From Pseudomonadota bacterium (GTDB lineage: Bacteria > Myxococcota_A > Polyangia > Polyangiales > JAKSBK01), in contig JAKSBK010000210.1 in NCBI GenBank assembly GCA_022361155.1, positions 2,364 through 66,363 on the forward strand: DNA of 64,000 nt, given 5' to 3'. Below are positions 9,522 through 59,657 of this stretch, in pieces; the stretch's first letter is position 1, and every line of letters begins with the position of its first letter. A program made the translations under genes and the position numbers. The notes under the pieces were generated by a model, which worked only from the letters and a program-made list of their open reading frames with translations, ran no database searches and was not told where the DNA came from.

Positions 9522-9680
9522 AGGGCCCGCGGAAGAATAGCTCATCCATTTCGCCGGTTCTGACCACCGCCGGCTATGTTGCTCCTCCTCGAAGTATCCC
9601 CAATACTCCTCGTCGGCGCGCCTCGCCAGCGGCGCCCAGTCCTCACCGAAACGCACGAGTTATTCTTCCGCGGGCCCTAA
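9522..9680. repeat. MITE-like palindromic interspersed element, copy A (about 157 bp)
   Basis: Inverted repeats agggcccgcggaagaata (9522-9539) and tattcttccgcgggccct (9661-9678). Central hairpin agtat/atact. About 85% identical in reverse complement to 21251-21330. The CTA at 9677-9679 is the stop of the ABC ATPase gene. Confidence 0.8.
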
Positions 9681-10621
9681 GGGCCCGAATCCTGGTTGAC
9701 CGCCTTGCGCACGAAGAGGTCCTCGAGGGTCTCGCGCTTCGGCGTCACCGCGATCAAGGTAGCCTGATGGTCGAGCGCGCTGCGGACGACTTCAGGCACT
9801 GCTGCATCGCCTTCGATCGTGACTACCAGGCTGCCCTCCAAGTCGCTGATCTGCATGGCTTGCCGTTCGAGCTGCGCGCGGCACGCCGCGGTCACGTTCG
9901 CAAGCTCGACCTCGACGTGGCGCACCTCGGGTCGCAGGAGCGTGGAAAGCGACCCCGTTGCACTGACGAGGCCTTGATTCAGAATCGTCACCTCATCGCA
10001 GAGCATCTCGACATCGCTCAGGATGTGACTCGTGAAGATCAAGGTCTTGCCGCGCCTGCGTTGATCCAGCAGCACATCGCGCACGTGCTTGCGCCCTACG
10101 GGATCGAGCCCGCTGAACGGTTCGTCCAGGATCAGCATCTCGGGATCGTGCAGCAGCGCCTGCGCCAGGCCGATGCGTTGCATCATGCCTTTGGAGAAGC
10201 GACCGATCGGTCGATCGACGGCGTCCGAAAGCCCCACGTCTTCGAGCTGCTTCGTGCTGCGCGCCTTGCGTTCGCGTTCTTGGAGCCCCACCAGCCGGCC
10301 GCACAGGTCCAGAAACTCGAGCGGACGCAAATACTCGTAGACATAGGGGTTTTCGGGCAGGTAGCCCAGTCGCGCGCGCGCCTCGCGGCTGGCGCCCTCC
10401 GAGCCGAACAGCCGGATGCTGCCCCGGGGGGGATGGATCAGGCGCAGTGCCATCTTGATCGTCGTGGTCTTTCCTGCGCCGTTCGGTCCCAGAAAGCCGA
10501 AGATCTGGCCCCGCCGCACGCTGAAGCTAATGCCCCTGACCGCATGCACCGGCTTGCGAAAAAAGCCGATGCGGAACGTCTTGTGCAGGTCACGGACCTC
10601 GAGCACGCTGTCGCCAGCCAT
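9677..10621 (-). CDS. ABC transporter ATP-binding protein (ABC-2/DrrA-like), no adjacent permease
   Basis: Walker A GPNGAGKTT, signature FSKGMMQRIGLA, Walker B ILDEPFSGLD. Start ATG 10621 or 10651. Confidence 0.85.
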   Translation of the reverse strand: MAGDSVLEVRDLHKTFRIGFFRKPVHAVRGISFSVRRGQIFGFLGPNGAGKTTTIKMALRLIHPPRGSIRLFGSEGASREARARLGYLPENPYVYEYLRPLEFLDLCGRLVGLQERERKARSTKQLEDVGLSDAVDRPIGRFSKGMMQRIGLAQALLHDPEMLILDEPFSGLDPVGRKHVRDVLLDQRRRGKTLIFTSHILSDVEMLCDEVTILNQGLVSATGSLSTLLRPEVRHVEVELANVTAACRAQLERQAMQISDLEGSLVVTIEGDAAVPEVVRSALDHQATLIAVTPKRETLEDLFVRKAVNQDSGP

Positions 10622-10647
10622 GGAGCAGGGTGCGCGGCTGGCACGCG

Positions 10648-11778
10648 TCATGGTGCTTTTCCCGCGCCGCCCCCCAGCACAGCAGCGACGGCGTCGATCA
10701 CGAGTTGCTGTTCGCCGGCTTGCAGCGTCGGATAGAGCGGCAATGCGATGCCGTATTCGGCGATGTGCTGAGCGTTTGGAAAGGAGCGTCCCCGTTGCCG
10801 AGCCAGCTGGCTGGCCTGTGCCAGCTGCGGCAAGCTATGCATCGCGTACGAGAGCATACCGGCCTCGACGTTCCTGGCACGCAGCTGTTCGAGCACGCTG
10901 GCGCGCCGGCTTGCAGACCGCGGAAGCAGCGCGCCCATGGTCTGAACGTTCCACTCGGCACCGGCTGGGGCGCGCTGGAACTCGAGCCCGCCCAGCGCCG
11001 CACGGTAGCGGGCCGAGAGCGCTCGCCTGCGGGCCACGATGGCATCCAGACGTCCGAGCTGGATGCTGCCCATGGCGGCAGCCATTTCGGTGAGCCGGAA
11101 GTTACCCGCAGGCTCGCGGAACCGGCCGGGCGCGGATTGACCGTGGTTGCGCAAGACCGTGAGCCTGTGCGCCAGCTCGGGTTGGTCGGTCAGGCAGGCG
11201 CCCCCTTCGCCCGTAGTCAGCAGCTTTCTCGGATGGAAGCTGAGGCAGGCGATGAGTCCCATCGAACCGCAGGGCTCACCATGCAGGGAGCTTCCGAGGC
11301 TGCAGGCCGCGTCCACGATCAGCGGTAGCTCGCCCAGCGCCGCCTGGATTTCGGTCACTCGGGCGGGGACACCAAACTGGTCGATCACCACGGCGGCGCG
11401 CGTCCGATCGGTACGTGCTTCGGCGAACGCGGCGGGTAGGGCGTTCCATTCGTGGCGATCCACATCCACCAGCACGGGGCTCGCGCCGCAGCGGATGATG
11501 GCATGTGCGGGGCTTGGCCAGCTCAGATCCGGGCACAGTACCTCGTCGCCGGAGCCCACCCCCGCCGCCTGCAGCGCGAGGCTCAGCGCGGCCGTACCGC
11601 TCGCCACGGCGACCGCGAAGGTGCGCCGGCAGGTCGCGGCCAGCAACTCCTCGAACTCGGCGACCCGTTGCCCTTGCACGAGGCGGCCCGAACCGAGCAC
11701 CGCCGCCACGGCGTCGAGCTCTTCGGAGCCCAGCATCGGCTTGCACAGAGGGATCACTGCCAGGTCGCGTTGTCCCAA
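10648..11778 (-). CDS. DegT/DnrJ/EryC1/StrS-family PLP aminotransferase
   Basis: Family-typical fold pattern (GDEVLCPD..., SFHPRKLLTTGEGG with the PLP lysine region). 4-nt overlap with the downstream ABC ATPase. Confidence 0.8.
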   Translation of the reverse strand: MGQRDLAVIPLCKPMLGSEELDAVAAVLGSGRLVQGQRVAEFEELLAATCRRTFAVAVASGTAALSLALQAAGVGSGDEVLCPDLSWPSPAHAIIRCGASPVLVDVDRHEWNALPAAFAEARTDRTRAAVVIDQFGVPARVTEIQAALGELPLIVDAACSLGSSLHGEPCGSMGLIACLSFHPRKLLTTGEGGACLTDQPELAHRLTVLRNHGQSAPGRFREPAGNFRLTEMAAAMGSIQLGRLDAIVARRRALSARYRAALGGLEFQRAPAGAEWNVQTMGALLPRSASRRASVLEQLRARNVEAGMLSYAMHSLPQLAQASQLARQRGRSFPNAQHIAEYGIALPLYPTLQAGEQQLVIDAVAAVLGGGAGKAP

Positions 11779-12762: not shown

Positions 12763-14148
12763 ATGTCCGACTCTCCCACACGCAGCCACCCGGAGTCCCA
12801 CGGCCACAGCGGGGTGAGCTCGAGCGACCATGGCGCGTCCGGCTTTGCGCCGCCGACCGCGCTGGAGCGCGCTTGGGCCGACCGCGCGGCCGGGCAGCGA
12901 GAGCGGGCCCTTCGCCTGGCCCTGACCGCGATCGAGGGCCGCACCGCGGGTCCGTGGGCGGCTCTGCTGGTGGTGCGGCTGCTGCTCGAGGCGAGGCGCG
13001 ACCAGGTGGCGTCCCGCGCCATCGATCCCCTCGTCACCGCGTTCATCGACCGCGGTGACCTGCCGGGCGGGGTGGTAGCCGCAGGGCTGCTTGCCGCAGA
13101 GCGAAGGCAGGCGGCGCTGCGGCGTCTGGCTCAGGCGTTTGCGCGGGGCTCGGAGCGCGTGACCGATGCCCCTGTCGCCCCGCCGCCGTTGCCAGACGGC
13201 AAGCCGGCGCCAGCCGAGCAGCAAGCGCTAGCCGGCGAGCCCCTCTTGGGGCGGGCGGAGCAACTGCTGCAGCTGTATCTGTCCCTGGAGGCCGGCAGCG
13301 GCGCACCGTCCCGGCTGCCACGGCTCGCGCTGTTCGGGTCGCTGTCCGCCGACGCGCTCGTGCGCCTGTTGGGTATTCTCGGTTCACGGGAAATCCAACC
13401 CGGGGCCAATGTGGTTCGCGAGGGGGAGCCTGGTCGCGAGGCCTTCGTGCTGGCGCGGGGTCGGCTGCAGGTCGTTCGGCAGAGCGCGGGCGAGCATGCA
13501 GGGCTCGCGAATCTGGGCCCGGGCGATCTGTTCGGCGAAATGGCGCTCGTCAGCGACGCTCCCCGTGCGGCCTCGGTCATCGCAGCCACCGCCTCGGAGG
13601 TGCTGGTGGCGTCGCGCGAGCGCCTTGAAGAGCTTGCGGGTCAAGAGCCCGCGCTCGGCGAGACCTTGGCCCGTTTTTGCCAGCGCAGGATGCTCCAAAA
13701 CCTCGTACGCCACAGTCCCATCCTGTCGAGCCTACAGCCCAAGCAGCGCGAACAGCTCATGGGTCGCTTCAAGACCTGCCACTTTGGAGCGGGTCGGGCA
13801 CTGATAACGCAGGGAAGCCAAGCCCCCGGGCTGTATCTGATTGCCAGCGGCGAGGTGAGCGTCTGCAGTCCTGACGAAGACGGCGACACCGTGGTCCTCG
13901 CCGTGCTCGGTCCGGGCGACGTCGTGGGCGAAATTTCGCTCGTTCTGCGTCGAGAGGCCAACGCCAGCGTGGTCGCGACCCATCCCACAGTCGCGCTGGA
14001 ACTCACACACGAGCAGTTTCAACACAGCATCCGCGAGCACCCCAACCTGCTCGCACGGCTTTACGAAATCGCCACCCAGCGCGACGAAGAAACCCGTAGC
14101 GTGGTTGCACAACGAGCCCTAGATGTGGAAGATGTTGTGCTGGTTTAG
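12763..14148 (+). CDS. Protein with two cyclic-nucleotide-binding (CAP_ED) domains and a helical N-terminal region
   Basis: Two cNMP-binding signatures, GDLFGEMALVSDAPRAASV and GDVVGEISLVLRREANASVV. Ends 12 nt before the HprK-like gene. Confidence 0.8.
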   Translation: MSDSPTRSHPESHGHSGVSSSDHGASGFAPPTALERAWADRAAGQRERALRLALTAIEGRTAGPWAALLVVRLLLEARRDQVASRAIDPLVTAFIDRGDLPGGVVAAGLLAAERRQAALRRLAQAFARGSERVTDAPVAPPPLPDGKPAPAEQQALAGEPLLGRAEQLLQLYLSLEAGSGAPSRLPRLALFGSLSADALVRLLGILGSREIQPGANVVREGEPGREAFVLARGRLQVVRQSAGEHAGLANLGPGDLFGEMALVSDAPRAASVIAATASEVLVASRERLEELAGQEPALGETLARFCQRRMLQNLVRHSPILSSLQPKQREQLMGRFKTCHFGAGRALITQGSQAPGLYLIASGEVSVCSPDEDGDTVVLAVLGPGDVVGEISLVLRREANASVVATHPTVALELTHEQFQHSIREHPNLLARLYEIATQRDEETRSVVAQRALDVEDVVLV

Positions 14149-14160
14149 GCAGCTGGCGGG

Positions 14161-15096
14161 ATGGTTGTGTTCGCGCAAACCCACAGCGAACGAGTGGCTT
14201 GCCGGAACATGATGGAGCTTGGCTTGGCCCTGACAGACTCGGATGCTGCTCTCGCGCTTGGCGTTTCCGGGCGCCGCCGGAGCTTTTATTTCGGGGGCGT
14301 GCGTTTCGATGTCCGGGTAAGGGGGTTGCAGTGGGATGTTCCTCCAGCGGTACAGTCCTACATCACCGCCTGCTCGGACGCACTTCCGGTGGCTGGCCGA
14401 ATCGCGTGTGCGCTCGAAGCGGGCCCGGGCCCTACGCTCGAGGGGGACGCTGACGTCGCATGCGAATGGCACGGCGATCGGGCTAGAGTTCGCACACGCG
14501 GTTTGCATGCGATGCTCCGTCGGTGCGACCGGGGTGACTACGCGGCAAGGGCGCTCGTGCCGTCCGCGCACGAGGGAATCCGGGCGCTTACCTCCGCGCT
14601 CTCTGCGACGGTCGTGGAGCGTGAGGGTGGCATTCGTCTGCATGCTGTCCCGCTTCAGCTCGGTGAGAAGGTCGTACTGCTCATGGGTCCTTCGGGCGCC
14701 GGCAAGTCCACCTCGGCCGATCAGTGCGCCGGCGCTCGTGTGCTGTCTTATGATCATGCTGCTCTGGTTCGCTGCCGCAGCCGCTGGTTCGCGTGGGGAG
14801 TCCCGGGCGGCGCGCCTGCGCACTCACCAGTATCTTCGAGTAGGGCTCTGGCGGTGGCCGGTATCCTGCGAGTTCGCAAGGCAAGTTGCTCGCCCGCTCG
14901 CATAGTCCCGCTGCATTTGGTTCACGCCACCCTCGCTGTGCGTGAGAATGCCAAGAGCGGTACCGGGGCTTCTGGCGAGGCGAGGTTCTTGGCGGCCTGT
15001 GCCGAGATCAGCCGCGCGCTCCCCGTCGCCGAGCTTTGGACTGTCCTCGGAGCCCCGTTGCGCGACGTCATTGAAGAATGGATGAACAATGCCTGA
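14161..15096 (+). CDS. HPr kinase C-terminal-domain-like P-loop protein
   Basis: LHAVPLQLGEKVVLLMGPSGAGKST, the HprK-type pattern of a P-loop preceded by a His-containing strand. 8-nt overlap with the PqqD gene. Confidence 0.6.
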   Translation: MVVFAQTHSERVACRNMMELGLALTDSDAALALGVSGRRRSFYFGGVRFDVRVRGLQWDVPPAVQSYITACSDALPVAGRIACALEAGPGPTLEGDADVACEWHGDRARVRTRGLHAMLRRCDRGDYAARALVPSAHEGIRALTSALSATVVEREGGIRLHAVPLQLGEKVVLLMGPSGAGKSTSADQCAGARVLSYDHAALVRCRSRWFAWGVPGGAPAHSPVSSSRALAVAGILRVRKASCSPARIVPLHLVHATLAVRENAKSGTGASGEARFLAACAEISRALPVAELWTVLGAPLRDVIEEWMNNA

Positions 15097-15388
15097 GCAA
15101 CTCGCTCCAGGGTCGAGCACCAAGCTCAATGGTCTGATTCGAAGGGCCGACCGGGTGGCATGGCGTAACGTTGACGGTCGTGCGGTTCTGGTGATTATCG
15201 ATCGTCAGGAGCTCCATGCGCTAAACGATGTGGGCAGCCGAGTCTGGGAACTCGCGGACCGCCGCTCCATCCGTGAGATTGCGGTTCGCCTCGCAGAGGA
15301 ATTCGAAGTGGACTGCGTCAAGGCGGAGGCGGACGCGCGCTGCTTCGTTGAGCGCCTCCACGAGTTGGGAGCATTGCAGTGCGAGTAA
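15089..15388 (+). CDS. PqqD-family protein (RiPP recognition element-like)
   Basis: 99 aa. AWRNVDGRAVLVIIDRQELHALNDVGSRVWELAD...IREIAVRLAEEFEV matches the PqqD winged-helix pattern. Overlaps both neighbouring genes. Confidence 0.8.
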   Translation: MPEQLAPGSSTKLNGLIRRADRVAWRNVDGRAVLVIIDRQELHALNDVGSRVWELADRRSIREIAVRLAEEFEVDCVKAEADARCFVERLHELGALQCE

Positions 15389-16686
15389 CAGCCACGAGCG
15401 GGGCGGCAGCTAGTCAGACGGCAAACGCGGATGACTTGCTCTTTCGCCTTGGCGAGGCACGCGACTTTCCCCTCACGGCAACCATCGAAATCGCGGACCG
15501 CTGCAACGAGGTTTGTGTCCACTGTTATCAAGTGCAGGGTAAGAAGGGGGAGATGACAACCGAGCAGGTCAAACGGGTCATGGATGAACTGGCCGGTCTG
15601 GGCGTGCTCATGTTGTGCATCTCGGGTGGCGAGGCTACGCTCCGCAGGGATTTTCTCGAGCTCGTCGAGTATGCGAGCGGGCTTGGCTTCTCGATCACTT
15701 TGTTCACCAACGGGCTGACGATGAGCAAGGAGTTGGCCCGTGCCCTCGCGCGCCTCAACGTGCGTGAGGTGCAGATTAGCCTGTATTCGCCACGCCCAGA
15801 GGTACACGACTGGGTGACGGGCGTGCCGGGATCGTGGGAACGCACCACCAGAGGAGTGCGGTACCTTGTCGAAGAGAACGTGCGCGTGCGCGTCAAGACG
15901 CCGATCATGACTGTCAACGGCGGCGACTACAGGCGCTACATGCGGTTGGCCAGCGACCTTGGTGCGCTTTTCAGTCTGGATCAGAGCGTGCTTATGCCGC
16001 GCGAAGACGGCCGCCGGGATCCCGAGGCCATGGCGTATCCATGGGAGCTCAAGCAGCGCATCGTTAGCGACCCCGAGATCAAGAGGAGAGCGCAGATCAC
16101 CGGGCCTCGTTACAAGAGCAATGAACGTCCTGTTTGCGGAGCCTGCCGAACGCTTCATATCGAGGCCAACGGAGAGCTCAGACCGTGCTCTCAACTCGAG
16201 GTGGCGTGCGGGAACGCGTCGCGCGACGGGATCGAGGCTTCCTGGAAGTACGACGAAAACGTCAGGACGATTCGAGAGCTGACCTGGGACGATCTGCATG
16301 GCTGTCGAGAGTGCGACCTGCGCCATTATTGTTCTCGCTGCTTTGCGACGGCGCGCGCAGCCGGCGATGCCCTCGGCCCCTATGGGGCAGCATGTGCGGC
16401 CGCCAAGACGCGCTACCAGTCGGTTCACGGGAGATCGCCCTTCGATCGAGAGGTATCGCCCATTGGGCCGTACCGCCAGGCTGCAAGGGGTAGTTTCGAG
16501 TCGTTTCCCGACCGGATCACACCTCGCGACGAAGAGCTCTCGGCGGCGCTGAAATGGGTGCGACCCGAAGAGGGTGGGGCGCCAGCACCCGAGGCTTCGG
16601 CGATGCCGGGCCAGCTCGTTAAGTTGCGGAGGCCGGGGAAGCGACCGACTTGGGAGACCGTCCCCTCTGGGGCGGCGCCGACTTGA
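15379..16686 (+). CDS. Radical SAM / SPASM-domain peptide-maturase-like enzyme
   Basis: CNEVCVHCY (CX3CX2C) and SGGEATLR. C-terminal Cys cluster CGAC...ANGELRPC...ACGN...CRECDLRHYCSRC typical of SPASM auxiliary 4Fe-4S sites. Confidence 0.85.
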   Translation: MRVTATSGAAASQTANADDLLFRLGEARDFPLTATIEIADRCNEVCVHCYQVQGKKGEMTTEQVKRVMDELAGLGVLMLCISGGEATLRRDFLELVEYASGLGFSITLFTNGLTMSKELARALARLNVREVQISLYSPRPEVHDWVTGVPGSWERTTRGVRYLVEENVRVRVKTPIMTVNGGDYRRYMRLASDLGALFSLDQSVLMPREDGRRDPEAMAYPWELKQRIVSDPEIKRRAQITGPRYKSNERPVCGACRTLHIEANGELRPCSQLEVACGNASRDGIEASWKYDENVRTIRELTWDDLHGCRECDLRHYCSRCFATARAAGDALGPYGAACAAAKTRYQSVHGRSPFDREVSPIGPYRQAARGSFESFPDRITPRDEELSAALKWVRPEEGGAPAPEASAMPGQLVKLRRPGKRPTWETVPSGAAPT

Positions 16687-16755
16687 ACATATGCAGAGTG
16701 ACCCACAGGCGCTGGACTTGTCATGGAGCGGATTTCGGACGAAGGAGACACTCAC

Positions 16756-19700
16756 ATGGTGATCGGCCAGGTTCCAGGCGTTGATAGAAGAGCAGCCGCG
16801 GTGAAACAGCTGGATCGCCCTGCCGCGCGGGAAGCGGGCGTCATCTGGACGCTTGCATCTGTATTGTTTTGCGGCTGCAGCGTCAGCGACGATGGCGCGG
16901 GCATGCTCACGATCGTGAGCCCAGCGCCCAACCAGATGTTCACACCGGCGGACGATATCAGTCCGGACCAGCCTGGCTTTCAGACGCTGGTGGCGGTCAC
17001 GTCCACGAATCTCACCAGGCAGGCGAGGATCGTCTTGCATGTCGACGCCGGAGACCCGGTGCTCGCGAGGCTGCTCGAGGGGGTGGGCGCGCCCGACGAC
17101 GCGGGCAACGCCATGATCATGGTGACATTGCCCGCCGGCACGCACGAGCTGAGCGCGGAGACGTTCCTCGGCAGCGTTCGGTCCGCGGGTGTGGTGTACA
17201 CGGCTCCGGACCTTGGGGGTGGTCCGCCGATCGGGCCGGGAGGATGTCCCACGGCCTTGTTCGTGACACCGCTGCCGCCGGCCATGGGTGCCACGCAGCG
17301 GACGCTCGGACCGGGAAGCGACACCGTGGGCGAGGGCTGCGGGATGACCTTTGCCACCACCGTCGCGCTGGCGACCAACGCGCTCGACGGCGTGGAAGGG
17401 CAGCTGTTCGTCAACGGCACGCCGGGGCCGGTGGTCGCGGCAGCGGGTGGGGCGCTGGTATTCGACGACGTCGAGCTCGGCAACCGCGGCACGTTTCCGA
17501 ACCTGCTCGAGGTCAGGTTCAACCTCGCGGGCGTCGTGTGCGATGCGCTGCGCTATCCAGGCGATCTGCTGGTCGACTGCGAAGGCGCAAGTTGCGAGCT
17601 GACCGCACCACGCACCGATACGGGTTTTCTCAACCTCGAGGACGATGTGTCGAGCATGCCCGGTTTTCAGACGGACTTTCAGGTCACGACCGACAGCTCC
17701 GCCGCGAACCAGCCCGTGCGGCTCATCGTGGACGGCAATTTCAATACCCCCCCCATGATGAATCCGGTGGTCAACGGGCCCCAGGCCATTGCGACTTTCG
17801 GAGGCGTTTCACTTGAAGACGGCGGCCACACGGTCTTTGCCGAATGCCGGGACGACGCTGGCAACCTCACCAGGTCCGCTGCCGGGCGCTGGGTCGTGGA
17901 CACCGTGCCCTGCACCCTGGGTATCGATTCGCCTGCGGCGGGCACGAGCTTCATCGAGACCGACGACGTCAACAGCATGCAGGCCGGGCTGCAAGTCGAG
18001 CTTGAAGGCACCCTCATGGGCGACGGCTGCACCGGGGTGCGGGCAGCGGAGTGCACCGGGATCGAGGGCGTTCCGTTCCAGACGCACGATGGATCGCGGA
18101 GCGTGAGCGCCAATGTCACGCTGTCGAGTAACCGTATGCAGTCCCTGTGCCTCGAAGTGCGTGACGTGGCTCGCAACGTTGCCCAGGAACGAGTCGCCGT
18201 TGAGCGCCAATCAGATGCACCGAAGCTCGCCTTCGCCGTTCCGGACCCTCAGAACCCGGATGCATTGCGCTTCAACTCTGCGGGAAACACGTACGAGGGC
18301 CAAAGCTATGTGGCGGACCTTGACCCGACGACACCCGCTTGCGACGTGCGATTCGAGGTGCTGTGCGACGAGGTGGGCCGCCCCGTTACACTTCATGTTG
18401 AAGCTACGGGTGTTCAGCTGTCGGGCGGCAGCGCCGACTGCGTCGCGGCGCCGGCCATGCCCATGGGATTCCGAGGTCGAGCCACCTTCGCTTCAGTAGC
18501 CGTCGCCGCGGGGACCTCGCCCACCGTCAATATCGTCGCCCGTCAGCAGGGCGGCCGGCTGGAAGGCCAGTCAAGCCCGCTCACGCTGAACCACGACTGT
18601 CAACCACCGGATGTACTTTTCTACGAGCAGGATCCAGTGGACGGCGCCTTGTGCCAAGCATTCACTCCTTCGACCTCAGGGGGCGAGATCACCAAGAATG
18701 TTCGGGTATTCTCGCCGGTTGCAGCGCTTGAGCTGAAGATCTTCCGTACCGATGGCATGACGCCAGCCGTGCCGGTTTTCACGTCAACGACGCCCGTTCC
18801 CTCAGGCGCCTCACAGTTTCTGTTCCCGAATGTGAGCTTCCAAAACGGAGGAACCTACTCGGTGGTGGTGGAGGCTACCGACGGTGCTGGCAACCTCGGC
18901 ATCACCCCCCCGTGTCAGGTGCAGGTCGTGGATATCCCCACCCTTGCGATTACGGCCCCCATGAACGGGGCGGCATTGGATGCCTCGGGGGGATGCGCGG
19001 GTACGGGGATGTTCAATGTTCAGGTCGAAGCAACTACAGACGCGGCCGCGGGCTCGTTGGTCGAGATTCAGATTGCGGACCTTCCCGTCGAGACCACGTC
19101 CGTCGGCGTTAGTGGAGACATCAGCGAGTGCGTGGCGGCCAAGCAGGGCGAGGTTGATATTCGAGTGAGAGTTTCGGACACAGCAAGAGGTGGTGCGTTC
19201 GCCGAGCAGGTGCTGACTGTGACCATTGACAGCCTTCCGCCGCCCAACCCGATCACGGATCTGACTCTTCTGGATCCAACAACGACGCCTGCTACGGAGG
19301 ATGACAATCCGCGCGCAGGCACGGTGCGCTTTCGCTGGACCGCGGTGGATGATGCGGCAATGGGTCAGCCTCTTGCAGGCTACGAGCTTCGCTGTGTTGT
19401 GGCGCCGGGGCAGATCGCCGACGAAGCCAGCTGGTCGGCGGCTAGGTCCTATACGCTGGGCGTGAACCCAGCGGCGGGCGGGAACGTGCAGGAGGCGAAT
19501 GTTTCGGGGTTTCGGATGGGGGAGCCTGTGCGGTGCATTCTTCGAGGGGTGGACGGAGGAGGCCAATTGACGCCTCTACCTGCTGCGTCGGACCCGGGCT
19601 ACAACGTTCCCGTCGCTCTGAGCTTTCGTGACCACCAAGTCCAGCTTGCCGGCTCGGCTCGGCTCGGCATGCGCATGGTAGCGTTGGGAGACGTCAACGG

Positions 19701-21066
19701 GGACGGCCGCCCCGATCTCATGCTCGGTGGCGATGGCGAGGCGTATCTGTACTTTGGCGCTCGGGCCGGAGATCGCTTGCCGGATGCCCCATCGGTGACT
19801 TTCACGGGCTTGCCGGACTCGATGACAGTCCAGCATGGAGCCTTCGGTGAGCAAATCGCGGGCCTCGGAGACTTCAACGGGGACGGTTGTGCTGATTTTG
19901 CTATTGGAGAAGGTGCTGGGCTCGGCTCAACGCAGGGCGGGGACATGGGACGAGTCTATGTGTTTTTCGGGCGTGATGCTGATCCAGGCAAAGCCTGTCC
20001 CGATGAGTGGCCCACCGCTATCGATGTACCGGCGGGTTGCGGCGTGGCGGGACGGGTTGACGTGTGTTTGGTATCGAGTGAGTCCCTTGCCGTGCTGGGT
20101 GGGCGGGTAGACGCTGTCGGTGATTTCGACGGCGACGGTCTCTCGGACCTGGCAACGAGTGCCCGATTCGCCAGCGGGTTCGAGGGCAGAGTCTACGTTG
20201 TGCTGGGCCGGAAAGCCTATGCATCCGGTACCAGGATCGTCGTTCCTGGAACGCCCGGAATGGCGGGGAATGACCCGGATGGCTTTGTTTTCGCCGTTTC
20301 CGGAAGGTACCAGTTCGGTTGGGGGGTGACGGGGGTCGGTGACTTGCAGGGTGATAACCGTTCCGACCTCGTAATCACGACTCTGGGTCGTGGCCGAACC
20401 GGTACCCCCTGGTCGGTCTACCGTGTATTTGGCCAGACCTACAGTGCTGGCGGCGGGCTGGTCGCCGTGGATCAGAGTGAGCTGCTCGAGATCGCTTCGG
20501 GACCGCCAACTGGTAGCCCAGTTCGGGTCGCAGCGTTGGGTGACGTTGTCGGCGGTTCTGGACCCGATCTGGGGCTGTGGTTCCTCGCCGGGGGCCTCGG
20601 TCAGGTGCAGGTGTGGCCCGGCGACGGGCTCGGAAGCTTCGACCCCAGCCAAGCGGTTGTGCTTGACAACGCGGGCGGCGCCAACACGGATTCCCTCGGC
20701 GTGGCGATGGCATCGGTTCGCGGCCCCTTTTCCTCGAACGCAGACATTGATGGTGACGGCAAGGGCGAGCTGTTCATCGGTAGCGCCGGGTTGGGTGGAC
20801 ATCCCGGTGCCGGGCTGCTGTTCTATGCCGACAACGTCGCGTCGGGCGCACAGTCCGGCGCCATCGGCACAGACGTGGCTTCTGTTAGGCTACGGCATGA
20901 CATGGCGGGCGAGCCCCTAATAGTTGCGGGCAATTCCAGCGACAATCAGAACGTATGGGGCTTCGTCCAGTATGTAGGTGATATAAACGGCGACGGTTTC
21001 CCTGATCTCGCATTCGGCGACCCCAAATCGAACTCGGGTCGCGGCCGGGTGCAGATACTCTACTAG
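16756..21066 (+). CDS. Giant (about 1436 aa) putative lipoprotein with Ig-like repeats and a C-terminal FG-GAP/VCBS beta-propeller
   Basis: GAAGGAG SD 8 nt before ATG 16756 and a lipobox-like LFCGC. Repeated GDxNGDGxxD motifs (GDVNGDGRPDL, GDFNGDGCADF, GDFDGDGLSDL, GDINGDGFPDL). Confidence 0.75.
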   Translation: MVIGQVPGVDRRAAAVKQLDRPAAREAGVIWTLASVLFCGCSVSDDGAGMLTIVSPAPNQMFTPADDISPDQPGFQTLVAVTSTNLTRQARIVLHVDAGDPVLARLLEGVGAPDDAGNAMIMVTLPAGTHELSAETFLGSVRSAGVVYTAPDLGGGPPIGPGGCPTALFVTPLPPAMGATQRTLGPGSDTVGEGCGMTFATTVALATNALDGVEGQLFVNGTPGPVVAAAGGALVFDDVELGNRGTFPNLLEVRFNLAGVVCDALRYPGDLLVDCEGASCELTAPRTDTGFLNLEDDVSSMPGFQTDFQVTTDSSAANQPVRLIVDGNFNTPPMMNPVVNGPQAIATFGGVSLEDGGHTVFAECRDDAGNLTRSAAGRWVVDTVPCTLGIDSPAAGTSFIETDDVNSMQAGLQVELEGTLMGDGCTGVRAAECTGIEGVPFQTHDGSRSVSANVTLSSNRMQSLCLEVRDVARNVAQERVAVERQSDAPKLAFAVPDPQNPDALRFNSAGNTYEGQSYVADLDPTTPACDVRFEVLCDEVGRPVTLHVEATGVQLSGGSADCVAAPAMPMGFRGRATFASVAVAAGTSPTVNIVARQQGGRLEGQSSPLTLNHDCQPPDVLFYEQDPVDGALCQAFTPSTSGGEITKNVRVFSPVAALELKIFRTDGMTPAVPVFTSTTPVPSGASQFLFPNVSFQNGGTYSVVVEATDGAGNLGITPPCQVQVVDIPTLAITAPMNGAALDASGGCAGTGMFNVQVEATTDAAAGSLVEIQIADLPVETTSVGVSGDISECVAAKQGEVDIRVRVSDTARGGAFAEQVLTVTIDSLPPPNPITDLTLLDPTTTPATEDDNPRAGTVRFRWTAVDDAAMGQPLAGYELRCVVAPGQIADEASWSAARSYTLGVNPAAGGNVQEANVSGFRMGEPVRCILRGVDGGGQLTPLPAASDPGYNVPVALSFRDHQVQLAGSARLGMRMVALGDVNGDGRPDLMLGGDGEAYLYFGARAGDRLPDAPSVTFTGLPDSMTVQHGAFGEQIAGLGDFNGDGCADFAIGEGAGLGSTQGGDMGRVYVFFGRDADPGKACPDEWPTAIDVPAGCGVAGRVDVCLVSSESLAVLGGRVDAVGDFDGDGLSDLATSARFASGFEGRVYVVLGRKAYASGTRIVVPGTPGMAGNDPDGFVFAVSGRYQFGWGVTGVGDLQGDNRSDLVITTLGRGRTGTPWSVYRVFGQTYSAGGGLVAVDQSELLEIASGPPTGSPVRVAALGDVVGGSGPDLGLWFLAGGLGQVQVWPGDGLGSFDPSQAVVLDNAGGANTDSLGVAMASVRGPFSSNADIDGDGKGELFIGSAGLGGHPGAGLLFYADNVASGAQSGAIGTDVASVRLRHDMAGEPLIVAGNSSDNQNVWGFVQYVGDINGDGFPDLAFGDPKSNSGRGRVQILY

Positions 21067-21086
21067 TGAAGCCTTGGAGAATCCAA

Positions 21087-21254
21087 ATGAAGGACGAAGT
21101 CCCTGGGCAGAGCGAACCACCTCAGGACCCAGCTAGGCGGCCCTACGAGCCACCGGCGATCGAAGAGAGCGCTCAATTCAGCGTGCTGGCCTTGGGCTGC
21201 GATATTCAGCCGGGGGTTTGCGAGTTCCCCGATACGCCCAGTGCGAGCCTTTAG
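21087..21254 (+). CDS. 55-aa acidic/Pro-rich peptide with two C-terminal Cys (candidate RiPP precursor)
   Basis: GGAGA SD 6 nt upstream of ATG 21087. Sequence MKDEVPGQSEPPQDPARRPYEPPAIEESAQFSVLALGCDIQPGVCEFPDTPSASL. Starts 20 nt after the FG-GAP gene stop and is followed by an S26 peptidase gene. Confidence 0.45.
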   Translation: MKDEVPGQSEPPQDPARRPYEPPAIEESAQFSVLALGCDIQPGVCEFPDTPSASL

Positions 21255-21411
21255 GGCCCGCGAGAGAATGATTTGCGCGTTTCGGCGAGGACCGGGCGCC
21301 GCTGGCAAGGCGCAACGACGAGGAATGTTGGGGATATTTCGAGGAGGATGGACACAGCCAGCCGTGGTCGGAAGCGGCGAAACCCATGGGGGCGCCGCTT
21401 CTGTTCGTGGA
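21251..21411. repeat. MITE-like palindromic interspersed element, copy B (about 160 bp, distal repeat degenerate)
   Basis: ttagggcccgcgagagaatg... aligns at about 85% to the reverse complement of 9601-9680. Central hairpin aatgt/atatt (with G-U). TAG 21252-21254 is the stop of the 55-aa ORF. Confidence 0.75.
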
Positions 21412-21978
21412 GACCTTGCTGTTAACGATGCTAACGATGAGAGGGGTTTCTTCCTTGCTCTGTCCAAGCTGAGCGCTCCGCTGCGCCTGCAAGGAAACAG
21501 CATGATGCCTTGGGTGTGGCCGGGAACACGGGTGTCCGTTGTTGCCTGCAGACCGGAAGAGTTGCGAAAGGGAGACGTGGCTGTCGTGGCGCTGACGGGA
21601 GCGCTGCGGGTCCACCGGGTGATCAGCCGAGACCCTGGAGCTGGTTGGATCCTCCGCGGCGATGCGTTGGCTAAGTGCGATCCCAAACACTACAGCACTC
21701 GGATCGTTGCGCGAGTGCCCGGTACGGTGCTCTTTCGGTGGCATTGGCCGACGGCGCCCCCGGCGCTTGGCTGGGCCGTCAACCGTGCGATACTGTTTTC
21801 CACACGTGCCTCACGACCGATCTACCGGCGCTTGCGCAGAATTCGTGCGAGAGCGGAAGGGCTTGAGCGTGAAGTGCTCGCCTGCCGCAACACCACGAGA
21901 ATCAAGCGTCTCGTTTCGCGGGGGACAGCAGTCCGAGCAGCAGCCAAAGATAGCGCTGGTGCAGAACATCGCTGGTGA
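21325..21978 (+). CDS. S24/S26-family serine peptidase, SipW/archaeal-type signal peptidase-like
   Basis: LQGNSMMPWVWPG (catalytic Ser) and ALRVHRVIS (His of S26B-type enzymes). The only in-frame ATG/GTG starts upstream of the Ser motif (21241, 21268, 21325) lie inside repeat copy B. Confidence 0.6.
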   Translation: MLGIFRGGWTQPAVVGSGETHGGAASVRGDLAVNDANDERGFFLALSKLSAPLRLQGNSMMPWVWPGTRVSVVACRPEELRKGDVAVVALTGALRVHRVISRDPGAGWILRGDALAKCDPKHYSTRIVARVPGTVLFRWHWPTAPPALGWAVNRAILFSTRASRPIYRRLRRIRARAEGLEREVLACRNTTRIKRLVSRGTAVRAAAKDSAGAEHRW

Positions 21979-51232: not shown

Positions 51233-52147
51233 TCAGCGGTCACGCTGCGTTTCGGCAAAGCGACTCTCCAGCACATCGAGCGCGCGCAGCCGAGCGAAAT
51301 GCAGCAACGAGGCCAGGTGCTGTCTGGGCGAATCGAGCACGATGGGAAACAGCAGCAGGCGCCTGCGCCAAGGCGCGAGGCCGGGCCACCGAAACTGCAG
51401 CACGCCCTCGTGCGAAGCGGTCACGCGCCGCACGTAGCGCCGGCGCAGCGTCCGAGGTGACAGCCCCGCGAGCGTGGCCTCGGGCACTGGGCTCGAGAAG
51501 CGCTGGCGCGCAGAGGTGAGCAGCAGCCAGAGCGCGATGCAACAGCCCCACGAGCGGGCGCGCCCCGACAGCACATCCCAGCGGATCGGAAACGCGCGGA
51601 TGAGACGATGGGCGTCCTCGATGTTGCGCAGATCCGCATCGAGCCCGTGCCCATGGACGGTGCGGTGCAGTGCCAGGTGCAGCAAGCTGTCCTCGGCGCA
51701 CAAGCGCCGGACGGGCTGCCCCGAGAGCTCGCTGGTTTGCGCGCGAGCAAACAGGCCCTCGAGATCGATCCGGTAGCGGACAGGATGAATCAGGTTGGTG
51801 TGGATCTCGACCGGAACTGGACGGGCGGCAGCGCCCGAAAGGAAGGTACGCTCGTAGAACTGGCGCGCTGTGGCGGGGCGACCTGGCGGCGGCCTGATTC
51901 GATAACCCAGGCCTTGCAGAGCTGCGACCGAACGCTCCTGCTCGTCCGGGTGAACCAGCAGATCGATGTCGGTCACCTTGCGTTCGCCCGGCTCGTAGAT
52001 GCTTGTCCAAAACGCCGTGCCTTTGAGCAGCAGCGCATTGACCTCTTGGGCCGACAGCGCGCAGAGCACCTCTGCCAGCTGCGAGCCTACGAGCAGCTCG
52101 ACCCCGACGCGCGTCCAGCGCGGCCGTGATGGACTCGGATCGCACAT
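51233..52147 (-). CDS. Nucleotidyltransferase-family protein (NTP_transf_5-like)
   Basis: LLKGTAFWTSIYEPGERKVTDIDLLVHPDE matches the uncharacterised nucleotidyltransferase pattern (GxxxD.D). Family is recalled, not searched. Confidence 0.55.
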   Translation of the reverse strand: MCDPSPSRPRWTRVGVELLVGSQLAEVLCALSAQEVNALLLKGTAFWTSIYEPGERKVTDIDLLVHPDEQERSVAALQGLGYRIRPPPGRPATARQFYERTFLSGAAARPVPVEIHTNLIHPVRYRIDLEGLFARAQTSELSGQPVRRLCAEDSLLHLALHRTVHGHGLDADLRNIEDAHRLIRAFPIRWDVLSGRARSWGCCIALWLLLTSARQRFSSPVPEATLAGLSPRTLRRRYVRRVTASHEGVLQFRWPGLAPWRRRLLLFPIVLDSPRQHLASLLHFARLRALDVLESRFAETQRDR

Positions 52148-52175
52148 ACGCTGAGGTCCGGCCTGGAAAGCGCGG

Positions 52176-52394
52176 TCAAGCCGTTGGCGTGCCGCGCCCG
52201 CCAGTCCCGTCGCCGGCGAGGCCCCGCTCGAGCGATTCCAGCCCGCGCAGCACGGCCAACCGCAGGACGATCGATCGCGACACACGGCCCACGACCATCA
52301 TCTGATCGTCGTCGCGCAGCTGTGGGATCAGGCGGTCAGCGCGCTCAACCAGCGACTTCGGCAGGCGCAAGGTAACGATGGTCGAGTCTGCCAT
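52176..52394 (-). CDS. Ribbon-helix-helix (CopG-like) protein
   Basis: TIVTLRLPKSLVERADRL...SRSIVLRLAVLRGLESLE is an RHH pattern. Lies 28 nt upstream of the nucleotidyltransferase gene. Confidence 0.5.
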   Translation of the reverse strand: MADSTIVTLRLPKSLVERADRLIPQLRDDDQMMVVGRVSRSIVLRLAVLRGLESLERGLAGDGTGGRGTPTA

Positions 52395-55100: not shown

Positions 55101-56216
55101 TCATACGAAATTCAGGTGTTCTGGCGGCGCTCCCCTCGCAGCACGCAGCTGTACCAAGCCCTTCATGTGGGCATCAAGGGTCTCGTTCACCTTGTGCTGA
55201 AGGCACAGCGAGCCGCACATGACCTGCGCGTTGAACTCGGGCGAGGCGAGGTAGTTCATGACTTCCCAGTAGCGGTCGCTTGCCCAGATGTCCTTGAAGC
55301 GTTGCTCGCAGATGTTGCCGATATGCAGCTTCTTGTAGCGTTCGTTGAAGAGCATCCCGCAGGGGGCCACGAGCCCCGACCCGGAAAGCTGCAGCAGAAA
55401 AGGGGGGCCGTAACAGCGCTGATAGGATCGTTTGCCCTTGGCCTCGATCTTCGACCACTTTACCACGACCTTGTATTGCTGATCGGACATCGCTTCGGCT
55501 TCCCGAAAGCGGTCGTACAGGGACTCGTAACCCTCGTAGTCGACACCGAGCTCGCCGTCCTCGCTGTCGGAGCAGTGCTTGAGCACGAGGTAGTCGGGCT
55601 GAAGCCGCTTGCCCAAGCGGGCCAATGGCAGGATCTGATCGCCGTAGCCGGGCATGACGACCATCTGCATGCCGATGGTGACCGCGAGGCCGTTGCGTCG
55701 CTTGATCTCCATCATGTCGCCGATGTTCTGGCACACGCGATGAAACCACGCTTCCTTCACGCCCATGATTTGCGCGTAGCGCCGCGGCTCACCAGCCGAG
55801 ATGTTGACGCGCAGGTAGGTCAGGCAAGGCAGCAGCTCTTCGAGCTTTCGGCGCGTAAGCGCCAGGCCGTTGGTGCCCACAGCCATGGCCAGGCCGAGCT
55901 CATGACCCCTGCGCACCGTATCGACGAAAACCGGGGAAATCGTGCTCTCGCCGTCCGAGACCAAGCTGATGGCCTTGACCCCGATGCTCGCGCAATCCTC
56001 CAAGAAATCGAAGATGACCTGGCGCGTGATCGGCCTGCGGTCGTTTTCCTGAAGCATGGCGTAGCAGTATTCGCAAGCGAAATTACAGGCCCGCGTCAGC
56101 GCCATGTCGATCGTGATCGGTGCGATGCGCTCGCCGCGTTCCCAAGCGGCGACGCGCTCCATGTGCCACGCGATCTTGGTACCGTCCAAGAGCAGCTCAC
56201 CGGCTGGCGCCGTCAC
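55101..56216 (-). CDS. Radical SAM enzyme in the sugar-modification cluster
   Basis: LTRACNFACEYCY (CX3CX2C) and a C-terminal Cys-containing auxiliary region. ATGA-type coupling to the upstream gene. Confidence 0.8.
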   Translation of the reverse strand: MTAPAGELLLDGTKIAWHMERVAAWERGERIAPITIDMALTRACNFACEYCYAMLQENDRRPITRQVIFDFLEDCASIGVKAISLVSDGESTISPVFVDTVRRGHELGLAMAVGTNGLALTRRKLEELLPCLTYLRVNISAGEPRRYAQIMGVKEAWFHRVCQNIGDMMEIKRRNGLAVTIGMQMVVMPGYGDQILPLARLGKRLQPDYLVLKHCSDSEDGELGVDYEGYESLYDRFREAEAMSDQQYKVVVKWSKIEAKGKRSYQRCYGPPFLLQLSGSGLVAPCGMLFNERYKKLHIGNICEQRFKDIWASDRYWEVMNYLASPEFNAQVMCGSLCLQHKVNETLDAHMKGLVQLRAARGAPPEHLNFV

Positions 56217-57415
56217 GGGGCCTCCTGCAACAGCGCCAGGCGCCGCAGCTTGTTGCGATCCTTGAGCTCGGCCAGCAGCACTTCAAGCCGCGGGTCGATC
56301 TCATCCCGGATGGCGCGCTCGATCCTCATCGCGAGCCCTGGTTTCTCGTGTTCGGCAATCAAACGGGACATGCGCAGCACCACGCGCACGTCGAGCTGGA
56401 TCGCGAGGACCTCGATACGCTCGGGATGGTAGCCCAGGGGCCCGGCGTTGCGGGTGATGCTGCGCCGCAACGAAGCCAGCCGTTCGGGCTCGGACATGGC
56501 GAGCCAGCCGGCGCCCGGCAGCCGATCGTGGAAATTGGCGACCTCGTGGTTTCCCGTTTGCTCGCGGTAGCGGGCCGCGGCCAGCCGCAGCAGCTCGAGG
56601 GGCAGCGCGAACGCGGGATCGGCGGCTTGTGGTGTGACGATGCCAGGCACGGGGGGCGGCTGCGCGCGATCGCGCAGCGTGTGCTCGAGCCGGATCACGC
56701 CGTGGTCGCTCGCTTCCTGAAGCGGCAGGCCGAGACACAGCGCACACAATCGGTCCAGCAGGGCCCGCTCGAGGGCGTTCCGCGTGCCCGAGAAACACGC
56801 GTCGCGGACTACCTGCGCCCGCGTGTCCACCACCAGCCACAGCGCAACCGAGCCGACCTCGCCGCGCACCGTGAGCGAGCCGGTGCTTTCCTTTGGCGCG
56901 CGCTCGAAGCCGATGCGCGACAACCCTTCGCCGATCGCCTTGGCATAGACGTCCCCCATGCCAAGGCGACGCCCGACGTGCGCCGGGCGTGCCTGGGCGG
57001 TCTCGGGGGCGCCGTGGAGAGCCGTCCTGGTAGCTGCCCGCTCCCGTGGGCGCTGCGGGACCGATCGCCGCGGCGCACGAAGCGCATCCACGGCGAGCAC
57101 GACGCCGTCCTCGAGTCGCACCAGGCGCACCCGGCCGAACTCGCGGGCTGCTTGTTCCAGCTCCGCCAGGTCCATGCTGGCGGTGGTGGCAGCGCCCATG
57201 CGCAGCGTCAGCTCGGGCCTGCCGAGCTCGGCCGCCGCGTCCAGCATGTTGGCGACGCTGCGCATCGGATCCTCGTCGGGTACCCACAGCTCCAGGTAAT
57301 CCGCGCTCGGGCCGAAGCCGCGCAGCTTGGTGGCGAGCCCGCTACGGTAGTCTGCACAGAGCTGGTCGAAGTCGAGTGCGGTCCCCAGCCGATCCTGATC
57401 CAGCGTTTCGGTCAT
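56213..57415 (-). CDS. Hypothetical protein (400 aa) inside the sugar cluster
   Basis: Translationally coupled on both sides (ATGA at 57412-57415). No motif recognised with confidence. Confidence 0.5.
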   Translation of the reverse strand: MTETLDQDRLGTALDFDQLCADYRSGLATKLRGFGPSADYLELWVPDEDPMRSVANMLDAAAELGRPELTLRMGAATTASMDLAELEQAAREFGRVRLVRLEDGVVLAVDALRAPRRSVPQRPRERAATRTALHGAPETAQARPAHVGRRLGMGDVYAKAIGEGLSRIGFERAPKESTGSLTVRGEVGSVALWLVVDTRAQVVRDACFSGTRNALERALLDRLCALCLGLPLQEASDHGVIRLEHTLRDRAQPPPVPGIVTPQAADPAFALPLELLRLAAARYREQTGNHEVANFHDRLPGAGWLAMSEPERLASLRRSITRNAGPLGYHPERIEVLAIQLDVRVVLRMSRLIAEHEKPGLAMRIERAIRDEIDPRLEVLLAELKDRNKLRRLALLQEAP

Positions 57416-59644: not shown

Positions 59645-59657
59645 CACGGGGCTCCGA

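Follow-up and report, generated by a model that had tools for sequence, protein, structure and literature searches.

The 64,000-nucleotide stretch of myxobacterial DNA analysed here (the "window") carries a co-directional, tightly packed block of genes. These encode, in order, a protein binding cyclic nucleotide monophosphates (cNMP), a P-loop protein resembling HPr kinase (HprK-like), a discrete PqqD-type protein, a radical S-adenosylmethionine (rSAM) enzyme with a SPASM domain, an FG-GAP repeat protein, a 55-residue peptide, and a peptidase resembling family S26. The peptide is the subject of this report. It is probably the precursor of a RiPP, a peptide synthesized ribosomally and then modified after translation, akin to the linear polyphosphorylated peptides (LPPs), additionally processed by a radical-SAM enzyme, in soil and sediment myxobacteria.

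The peptide gene and its family

The peptide gene spans positions 21087..21254 on the forward strand, from an ATG at 21087 to a TAG stop at 21252-21254, and its product is MKDEVPGQSEPPQDPARRPYEPPAIEESAQFSVLALGCDIQPGVCEFPDTPSASL. A Shine-Dalgarno-like GGAGA (21076..21080, forward strand, read directly from the sequence) lies 6 nt ahead of the start codon, and purine-rich runs are found upstream of the start in most homologues. The first-pass annotation of this DNA had listed this GGAGA and its spacing, the 55-residue product, the motif Y20-E-P-P-A-I25, the junction A35-L-G37-C38 and the second cysteine C45, all of which are as described. It had also given the gene a GC content at third codon positions (GC3) lower than that of its neighbours, which is incorrect: the value of 0.696 lies inside the 0.60-0.73 range of the other operon genes. 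The same product, 100% identical, is called in five independent metagenome contigs, and a metagenome-assembled genome (MAG) labelled "Proteobacteria bacterium" at NCBI carries it as MJD61_07770, annotated as a hypothetical protein.

The window has a GC content of about 65% and holds 506 open frames of 40-90 codons. A Y..P.[LIV] motif occurs in four of these 506, and the open reading frame (ORF) plus this single motif, taken alone, is no better than chance. The composite of YxxPx[LIV], 8-16 further residues and [AVS]-x-[AGS]-C is found in the peptide ORF alone among the 506 frames. Scans of the surroundings of the ORF yielded no Rfam match and no promoter or terminator signal. The caveat, raised at first pass, that this might be a chance ORF thus holds for the ORF and its motif considered by themselves, and falls once conservation across genomes and the ratio of non-synonymous to synonymous changes (pN/pS) are weighed. 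It is this conservation, rather than size and motif, which are insufficient, that identifies the ORF as a genuine gene.

A word-index search with the single peptide returned only itself; the family surfaced through synteny-guided tblastn followed by profile searches. For this purpose, 38 loci from species-representative genomes were fetched via the alignment of rSAM orthologues, the relatives being MAGs of Sandaracinaceae, Polyangiales and Polyangiaceae with about 35-54% identity. Exactly one homologous small ORF is present in each of 26 loci, as detected by tblastn and then by a hidden Markov model (HMM) built from the first matches. The 12 loci devoid of it all end within or just past the FG-GAP or rSAM gene. 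A homologue therefore exists in 26 of the 26 informative related Myxococcota loci, which settles a check proposed at first pass, namely the search for a homologous small ORF beside rSAM and peptidase genes. The ORF is usually located directly 3' of the FG-GAP gene or, in locus L006, which has no FG-GAP gene, directly after the rSAM gene. In Polyangiaceae-type loci, it lies a few kb away, at times on the opposite strand. A profile search of 5.8 billion proteins retrieved 173 small proteins of 47-106 residues called by independent gene callers, all unnamed and without a Pfam domain, and an exhaustive HMMER scan of 1.84 billion cluster representatives retrieved 848 representatives at 50% identity (E<=0.001). 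As far as seen, the family is confined to Myxococcota (Polyangiales/Sandaracinaceae), and no description of this myxobacterial cluster or peptide family was found in the literature.

Codon-level statistics were computed on a gapless block of 21 leader codons from 25 loci. The third codon position is the most variable, with entropies of 0.99, 0.77 and 1.39 for positions 1, 2 and 3, respectively. Furthermore, pN/pS is 0.53 in frame versus 1.30 and 1.69 in the two shifted frames, and the invariant Pro of the leader is encoded by four different codons. The 55-codon ORF is a real, conserved gene. That it would be a chance, untranslated ORF in GC-rich DNA, as might be argued from the hundreds of window ORFs of this size and from the lack of a promoter or terminator signal of its own, has a negligible probability in view of its conservation in 26 loci and 848 representatives, the synonymous bias of its substitutions, and the maintenance of its position and Shine-Dalgarno sequence.

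The family signature reads RRP-Y-E-x-P-x-[IV]...[FL]-E-T-[LMYF]-[AS]-L-[AS]-C, followed by a variable tail with exactly one more Cys. Among 243 column-aligned members, Tyr (position Y) and Pro (Y+3) are invariant (243/243 each), and are accompanied by R at Y-3 (188/243), P at Y-1 (179/243), E at Y+1 (194/243) and V/I at Y+5 (240/243). Further downstream, Y+11 is F/L in all 243 members and Y+12 is E in 240, while Y+13 is T in 161, S in 27, V in 18, R in 18 and H in 8. The residues preceding the first cysteine (Cys1) are A/S/V/T at -3 (Y+15, 242/243), L at -2 (Y+16, 234/243) and A/S/T/G at -1 (Y+17, 228/243; A 140, S 59, T 23, G 6). Cysteines and C-termini were counted over 249 members: Cys1 stands at Y+18 in 245 of them, and 245 possess exactly two Cys. 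The conservation of the YxxP and Cys positions, which the first-pass annotation had suggested examining, is thus borne out, with both residues of YxxP invariant, Cys1 at a fixed +18 and the second Cys (Cys2) in >98% of members. The gap between Cys1 and Cys2 amounts to 5-17 residues, and the tail past Cys2 is mostly 7-10 residues long. The C-terminal residue is Ser (203) or Thr (27) in 230 of the 249 members (92%). Column entropy is at most 1.8 bits before Cys1 and at least 2.8 bits directly after it. A conserved leader followed by a hypervariable core with few fixed reactive residues is, to judge from the sequences, the architecture of a RiPP precursor.

In the window member, the putative leader motif recognized by a RiPP recognition element (RRE) is Y20-E-P-P23-A-I25 (21144..21161, forward strand), the Y and P being those invariant in the family. 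The NCBIfam model lasso_leader_L3 is matched by 6 of 70 family members. F31-S32-V33 (21177..21185, forward strand) is the counterpart of the family [FL]-E-T, with a candidate cleavage after V33, and A35-L36-G37 (21189..21197, forward strand) forms a second candidate site, directly before Cys38. The putative core is the variable two-Cys segment CDIQPGVCEFPDTPSASL (21198..21251, forward strand), with its cysteines C38 at 21198-21200 and C45 at 21219-21221. Of note, this peptide is an outlier of its own family: a Ser replaces the Glu of F-E-T (the sole case, 1/243), a Gly occupies position -1 of Cys1 (6/243), and the C-terminal residue is Leu instead of Ser/Thr.

The sequences also bear on the suggestion that a signal peptidase cuts a Sec or lipoprotein signal from the N-terminal part, leaving a plain secreted or lipidated mini-protein, and that the likeness to RiPP leaders is a coincidence. 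Small residues at -3 and -1 of the A-L-G/C junction are compatible with this, as is the adjacent signal-peptidase-family gene. However, the leader is acidic, proline-rich and without a hydrophobic core, its best 12-residue window offering only FSVLALGC, and the order [SA]-L-[AS]-C differs from that of the lipobox, L-[AS]-[GA]-C. The invariant YxxP, moreover, has no role in Sec or Lol signals, and the neighbouring peptidase possesses no membrane anchor and is homologous to a cytoplasmic enzyme (see below). An ordinary secreted mini-protein is therefore highly improbable, and a lipobox or Sec signal was rejected, the residue order being wrong and an h-region absent.

The putative processing enzymes and their genomic linkage

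The closest known counterpart is the LPP system of Bacillota, encoded by lppA-K-B-S-D-N (Popov et al., Nat Commun 2026; PMC13381572). Its core genes encode a signal peptidase I (SpI)-like enzyme of TIGR02228 type (LppS), a discrete PqqD RRE (LppB), an HprK-like kinase (LppK), an NTP_transf_5 protein (LppN) and an MsbA-like pump (PMC13381572). The LPP leader has the consensus YxxPxVLxHQxIxFETxxS, in which YxxP is essential for RRE binding, as it is in lasso systems (PMC13381572). LppS, with a Ser/His/Asp set of residues, has been shown by mass spectrometry and mutants to cut after F(-3)E(-2)T(-1), a reaction for which the RRE is required, and LppK polyphosphorylates Ser3 of the core (PMC13381572). 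The authors present such peptidases as new to RiPP biology and the LPPs as restricted to Bacillota, and their supplementary table lists three SpI homologues from Myxococcota, which belong to small, unanalysed network clusters (PMC13381572). One of these, from Chondromyces apiculatus DSM 436, stands beside an HprK-like-RRE fusion (PMC13381572). A 2023 review of RiPP leader proteases makes no mention of S24/S26 or signal peptidases.

The putative leader peptidase of the window, an LppS-like protease of the type of archaeal and endoplasmic reticulum signal peptidase I, is encoded at 21268..21978 on the forward strand. Its start is uncertain, the candidates being GTG 21241, ATG 21268, ATG 21325 and GTG 21364. 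Taken as a single sequence, it displays a weak S24/S26 likeness (Pfam E 0.002; NCBIfam sigpep_I_arch E 0.002), a phmmer search against the PDB returned only noise, and its single-sequence AlphaFold2 model is unusable, with a mean pLDDT (predicted local distance difference test) of 41.8. The assignment to S26 made at first pass is accordingly weak for this sequence by itself (E 0.002), and becomes clear at the level of the family. The boxes G-x-S-M-x-P, H-R and G-D are invariant among its 22 homologues; in the window protein, the catalytic residues are encoded at 21499-21501 (Ser), 21613-21615 (His) and 21661-21663 (Asp) on the forward strand. NCBIfam models are matched by many of the 22: TIGR02228 sigpep_I_arch by 20 (best 5e-10), the nickel superoxide dismutase (NiSOD) maturation protease by 13 and SipW by 4. 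The best solved matches of the family profile are human SEC11C and SEC11A (5e-9), in which the Ser/His/Asp boxes align with SGSMEP, VHRV and GDN. The family is homologous to LppS, as indicated by hhalign (probability 97.3%, E 1.9e-11, over 108 columns). No transmembrane helix or membrane anchor is predicted in the window protein, the maximum Kyte-Doolittle hydropathy over 19 residues being 1.08.

Of the 26 loci that bear the peptide, 20 also have the peptidase gene, and six of these 20 have no FG-GAP gene. The peptidase therefore goes with the peptide and the rSAM enzyme rather than with the large secreted FG-GAP protein, and the idea that it is a signal peptidase dedicated to the latter was rejected on the same ground.

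The RRE candidate is a discrete PqqD-family protein (15089..15388, forward strand; Pfam PqqD E 6.7e-14), the best NCBIfam match of which is lasso_PqqD_Bac (E 9.8e-8, below cut-off). The end of its gene overlaps the start of the rSAM gene by 10 nt, and nearly all loci have the two genes overlapping or abutting at this junction. The coupling of the rSAM/SPASM gene to an RRE gene is observed in all 38 rSAM-anchored loci and in the three peptide-anchored loci that cover this region.

The rSAM enzyme (15379..16686, forward strand; Pfam Radical_SAM 8e-25, SPASM 4e-5) resembles radical SAM/SPASM peptide maturases. It has an invariant C42-x3-C46-x2-C49 motif and seven SPASM cysteines (C253, C270, C309, C312, C318, C321 and C339), and has no built-in RRE domain. 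Among solved structures, the nearest relatives are SkfB (2e-30), which forms Cys thioethers, and PqqE (1e-19). It reaches no curated family cut-off of NCBIfam, and an exact-sequence look-up of the enzyme found nothing.

Two readings of the rSAM enzyme compete with its action on the peptide as a RiPP precursor. In the first, the peptide would be an LPP-type substrate only, the enzyme would act elsewhere (for example on the FG-GAP protein or on a cofactor), and the two Cys would form an ordinary disulfide. The RRE, HprK-like, SpI-like and NTP_transf_5 proteins are exactly the LPP gene set, which needs no rSAM enzyme, and the FG-GAP gene separates the rSAM gene from the peptide gene in most loci. 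Yet the PqqD-rSAM overlap or abutment in nearly all loci is typical of RRE-dependent rSAM maturases, the rSAM gene is present in all three peptide-anchored loci covering that region, and loci L006, L031, L032, L034 and L040, which have no FG-GAP gene, keep the rSAM enzyme, the peptide and the peptidase. The enzyme also lacks its own RRE, and its nearest solved relatives modify peptides. An LPP-only substrate is thus unlikely. In the second reading, the peptide would give rise to an invariant small molecule such as a redox cofactor instead of a peptide product, as PqqA does to pyrroloquinoline quinone (PQQ) and MftA to mycofactocin. PqqD, rSAM/SPASM and a peptidase together follow the logic of these pathways, MftC and PqqE are among the profile matches of the rSAM enzyme, and throughout the order the cluster is widely conserved, apparently in single copy. 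Cofactor precursors, however, keep their modified residues invariant, whereas here the part past Cys1 is hypervariable save for Cys2 and the terminal Ser/Thr, and no PqqB/C- or MftD/E/F-like genes are found among the cluster genes. A cofactor precursor is very unlikely, and processing of a RiPP precursor by the rSAM enzyme is retained as the more probable reading.

The putative peptide kinase is an HprK-like P-loop protein of the ScmC family (14161..15096, forward strand) with the sequence GPSGAGKST, and the stop of its gene overlaps the PqqD start by 8 nt. The 11 aligned members match TIGR04249 ScmC (11/11, best 8e-9), HprK_rel_A (10/11) and HprK_rel_B (8/11), all below the cut-offs. The family profile matches HPr kinase 1jb1 (E 0.002) over 50 residues, covering the His-Gly...P-loop stretch, and relatives carry a precomputed Pfam PF27840 ScmC assignment. 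Two HprK-like/ScmC paralogues, in tandem or flanking the rSAM gene, are encoded in the Polyangiaceae-type loci L031-L034, L036, L039-L041 and L044-L046. In L048 (3806-4852), the PqqD domain is part of a 348-residue product, and protein EYF04406.1 of Chondromyces apiculatus (supplement of PMC13381572) is an HprK-like-RRE fusion. These arrangements make it probable that the RRE and the kinase-like protein work as a single unit.

The set of HprK-like, PqqD, rSAM/SPASM, S26-like and peptide genes persists through the rearrangements of the Polyangiaceae-type loci. Peptide-anchored look-ups in three further genomes again yielded an S26-like gene, two ScmC genes, PqqD, rSAM/SPASM, FG-GAP and the peptide. 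Other members of the block are accessory. The first gene (12763..14148, forward strand) encodes a protein with two cNMP-binding domains (Pfam cNMP_binding E 2.5e-41). About 24 related loci have a homologue upstream of their HprK-like gene, Polyangiaceae-type loci have none, and the gene is accessory. The FG-GAP/Big_13 repeat protein (16723..21066, forward strand; Pfam FG-GAP 1.6e-23, FG-GAP_3, Big_13) is 1447 residues long with one N-terminal hydrophobic segment, and the peptide start follows 21 nt further on. Its gene stands between the rSAM and peptide genes in most loci, 20-100 nt ahead of the peptide start. L006, L031-L034 and L040 lack it and retain the peptide, the peptidase or both, and it can be considered as accessory but usually syntenic.

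A gene for an NTP_transf_5 nucleotidyltransferase (51233..52285, reverse strand; Pfam PF14907 E 3e-33) lies 30 kb from the peptide gene in the window, where it stands alone, with an ion-channel gene on one side and a LolA-like gene on the other. Cluster-adjacent genes in L021, L025, L031, L039, L041 and L044-L048 are homologues of it (E 7e-69). Such a gene occurs within 10 kb of the cluster in five rSAM-anchored loci: it adjoins the cluster in L021, L031, L039 and L041, and in L025 its position is upstream of the HprK-like gene by about 0.1 kb. In three peptide-anchored loci, it is directly downstream of the peptide. The window copy is possibly an unlinked member of the peptide system.

Other genes have been noted around the cluster. 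An ABC-transporter ATPase and a DegT-family aminotransferase (9677-11778 of the window, reverse strand), upstream of the block, are conserved beside it in 8-9 related loci, either by plain synteny or as possible members of the system. A second radical-SAM/SPASM gene (55101-56216, reverse strand), together with 56213-59692 (reverse strand), adjoins an unannotated 409-residue ORF and two DegT/DnrJ/EryC1 aminotransferase genes; these surroundings suggest the modification of sugars, and no member of the peptide family lies nearby. In L020 (15546-16523, reverse strand) and L028 (15539-16636, reverse strand), the ORF right after the peptide, on the opposite strand, displays a sulfotransferase-like G-[FL]-P-R-C-G-T-T motif. 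Both loci are devoid of the S26-like gene, and this ORF might be an alternative tailoring enzyme.

Kinship with known systems and the cleavage site

With the LPP system, the cluster shares a separately encoded PqqD-type RRE and a small, soluble LppS-like peptidase. The HprK-like protein, assigned from profile matches below threshold, is a putative further counterpart, and an NTP_transf_5 gene adjoins the cluster in many relatives and lies 30 kb off in the window. The leaders are also alike, with [KR]-x-Y-x-x-P-x-[VI] followed by F-E-T, the window member having F-S-V. In contrast, YxxP and FET stand two residues closer together here, and position +3 after FET is an invariant Leu instead of the Ser of LPPs. 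The core comprises ~18-22 residues with two Cys and a Ser/Thr end, while that of LPPs is a Gly/Asn-rich segment of 45 residues phosphorylated at Ser3. Furthermore, the present system belongs to Myxococcota and couples an rSAM/SPASM enzyme to the RRE, cNMP-binding and FG-GAP proteins are added, and no MsbA-type exporter is seen, no ABC_membrane/MsbA-type gene having been found among the annotated flanking genes scanned with Pfam. Membership in the LPP family as defined was rejected, on account of the missing MsbA-like pump and Ser3 site, the presence of the rSAM enzyme and the different phylum.

Phosphorylated lasso peptides of the paeninodin/pseudomycoidin type also possess a YxxPx[LVI] leader, a B1-type RRE and an HPr-kinase homologue. 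In these systems, the HPr-kinase homologue phosphorylates the C-terminal Ser of the lasso precursors, and a nucleotidyltransferase partner is present (PMC8498205). Unlike them, the peptide family has no Thr at -2 of the leader, and an rSAM enzyme is encoded instead. No B2 cysteine protease (transglutaminase-like) and no Asn-synthetase-like cyclase were found among the cluster genes, the conserved genes or the called genes of L044-L048. A lasso peptide was rejected, B2 protease and macrolactam cyclase being absent.

Sactipeptides (SkfA/SkfB), ranthipeptides, PqqA/D/E and MftA/B/C resemble the cluster in having a separate PqqD-like chaperone beside the rSAM enzyme, a full 7-Cys SPASM domain and Cys in the substrate segment; the lasso/LPP-like leader, the kinase-like protein and the S26-type peptidase set the cluster apart. 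Peptidase family S26 shares the Ser in an SM-x-P box, the H-R box and the GD box, and differs in that no membrane anchor is predicted here and that the substrate leader has no h-region. The SynChlorMet cassette (NCBIfam ScmC/D/E/F, TIGR04248-04251) has the same trio of ScmC-like P-loop, PqqD-like and rSAM/SPASM proteins. The window PqqD protein matches ScmD at 0.0024 and the rSAM enzyme ScmE/F at about 1e-25. The taxa differ, however, and the scores (ScmC 14.8, ScmD 18.1, ScmE/F 88-92 bits) fall far below the curated cut-offs of 100-400 bits, none of which is reached. The cassette itself is bioinformatically defined, and no literature on it was found, so that it offers no guide to function.

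Type I signal peptidases obey a -3/-1 rule, with small residues at both positions. The first-pass annotation had placed the cleavage after G37 on this basis, and [ASV]-L-[AST] before Cys indeed fits the rule in about 94% of members, whereas the LPP precedent lies four residues upstream. By analogy with LPPs, cleavage after the F-E-T counterpart (V33) is slightly favoured, because the sole experimental precedent comes from this homologous system. Such a cut would also explain why F/L-E is as conserved as Y and P. Cleavage directly before Cys38, after A-L-G37, is the less probable option, supported by the -3/-1 pattern. The distance from YxxP to the scissile bond, with the Pro at -11 for the FET site or at -15 for the site before Cys38, does not discriminate between them, the values being -13 in LPPs and -14 in lasso peptides. 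The co-variation of the third FET residue with the peptidase subtype involved too few informative loci to settle the site.

Proposed maturation and significance

In the proposed pathway, the peptide would be translated from the last part of the cNMP-HprK-like-PqqD-rSAM-FG-GAP-peptide-peptidase operon. The discrete PqqD-type RRE would bind its leader via the invariant Tyr20/Pro23/Ile25 motif, as suggested by lasso and LPP systems, and present it to the translationally coupled rSAM/SPASM enzyme. The latter may then modify the short variable C-terminal segment, most plausibly via the two conserved Cys, to introduce a thioether-type or other radical cross-link. The HprK-like/ScmC protein would phosphorylate a Ser/Thr; the near-universal one at the C-terminus is the most likely site, by analogy with paeninodin-type lasso peptides. 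This site is preferred over the Ser3 of LPPs because of the invariant Leu three residues past F-E-T. From the family alignment, the C-terminal Ser/Thr is the most likely target of the kinase, a point not noted at first pass, and the window member ends in Leu. In relatives, the NTP_transf_5 enzyme may decorate the phosphorylated residue further. Finally, the soluble LppS-like Ser/His/Asp peptidase would remove the leader within the F-E-T-L-A-L-x-C segment. Very probably, the system resembles LPP in how the peptide is recognized and its leader removed, and sacti- and PQQ-type systems in the rSAM step. The idea put forward at first pass, of a RiPP precursor with a leader read by PqqD and cut off by the S26 peptidase and with a core that the SPASM enzyme and the kinase would modify, is upheld in outline by comparative genomics, and its cleavage position is the less favoured of the two candidates.

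Several observations weigh against this pathway. BLASTP of LppB against the window PqqD protein was not significant, nor was hhalign of LppA against the peptide family, the motif match being too short, so that the arguments for kinship with LPP are the peptidase, the set of domains and the motifs. In 6 of the 26 loci, no S26 gene lies within 10 kb, and 12% of the members have R/H/Q at the would-be P1 of an FET-type site. The action of the rSAM enzyme on the peptide is deduced from co-occurrence only, and a simple disulfide could account for the two Cys. The profile matches behind the HprK-like assignment are below threshold, and no exporter is conserved across the loci. Furthermore, the window member, deviant at three conserved places, may be processed differently or less well than the rest of its family.

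A stronger proposal, to be taken as tentative and rather doubtful, is that the peptide is the founding member of a distinct RiPP class, in which an rSAM/SPASM cross-link would be formed via the two Cys, the C-terminal Ser/Thr would be phosphorylated and possibly nucleotidylated or glycosylated, and lasso/LPP-type recognition and processing (YxxP leader, B1-like RRE, HprK-like kinase, soluble signal-peptidase-like protease) would be combined with sactipeptide-type chemistry.

Leader peptidases resembling signal peptidases have been part of RiPP biology only since 2026, when the LPPs were described and reported as restricted to Bacillota. The toolkit of B1-type RRE, HprK-like protein, LppS-like peptidase and NTP_transf_5 protein now appears to extend to a second phylum, where it is wired to an rSAM/SPASM enzyme and to a different, two-Cys substrate. 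The 848 clusters at 50% identity, all without annotation, give the scale of the peptide family, and the signature provides a means to annotate hundreds of "hypothetical" small ORFs in myxobacteria, bacteria prized for their natural products. The substrate, the motif set and the enzyme set being defined, the sharp question is whether the cut is made after F-E-T or before the Cys. Chondromyces apiculatus DSM 436, a relative in culture, appears to encode an HprK-RRE fusion as well as a related peptidase. Across Polyangiales/Sandaracinaceae, the cluster seems to be vertically conserved and in single copy. If the more doubtful reading as a distinct RiPP class holds, this conservation, together with the presence of a cyclic-nucleotide sensor and a giant FG-GAP surface protein, suggests that the product may serve at the cell surface or in signalling during the multicellular life of myxobacteria, and not as an antibiotic.

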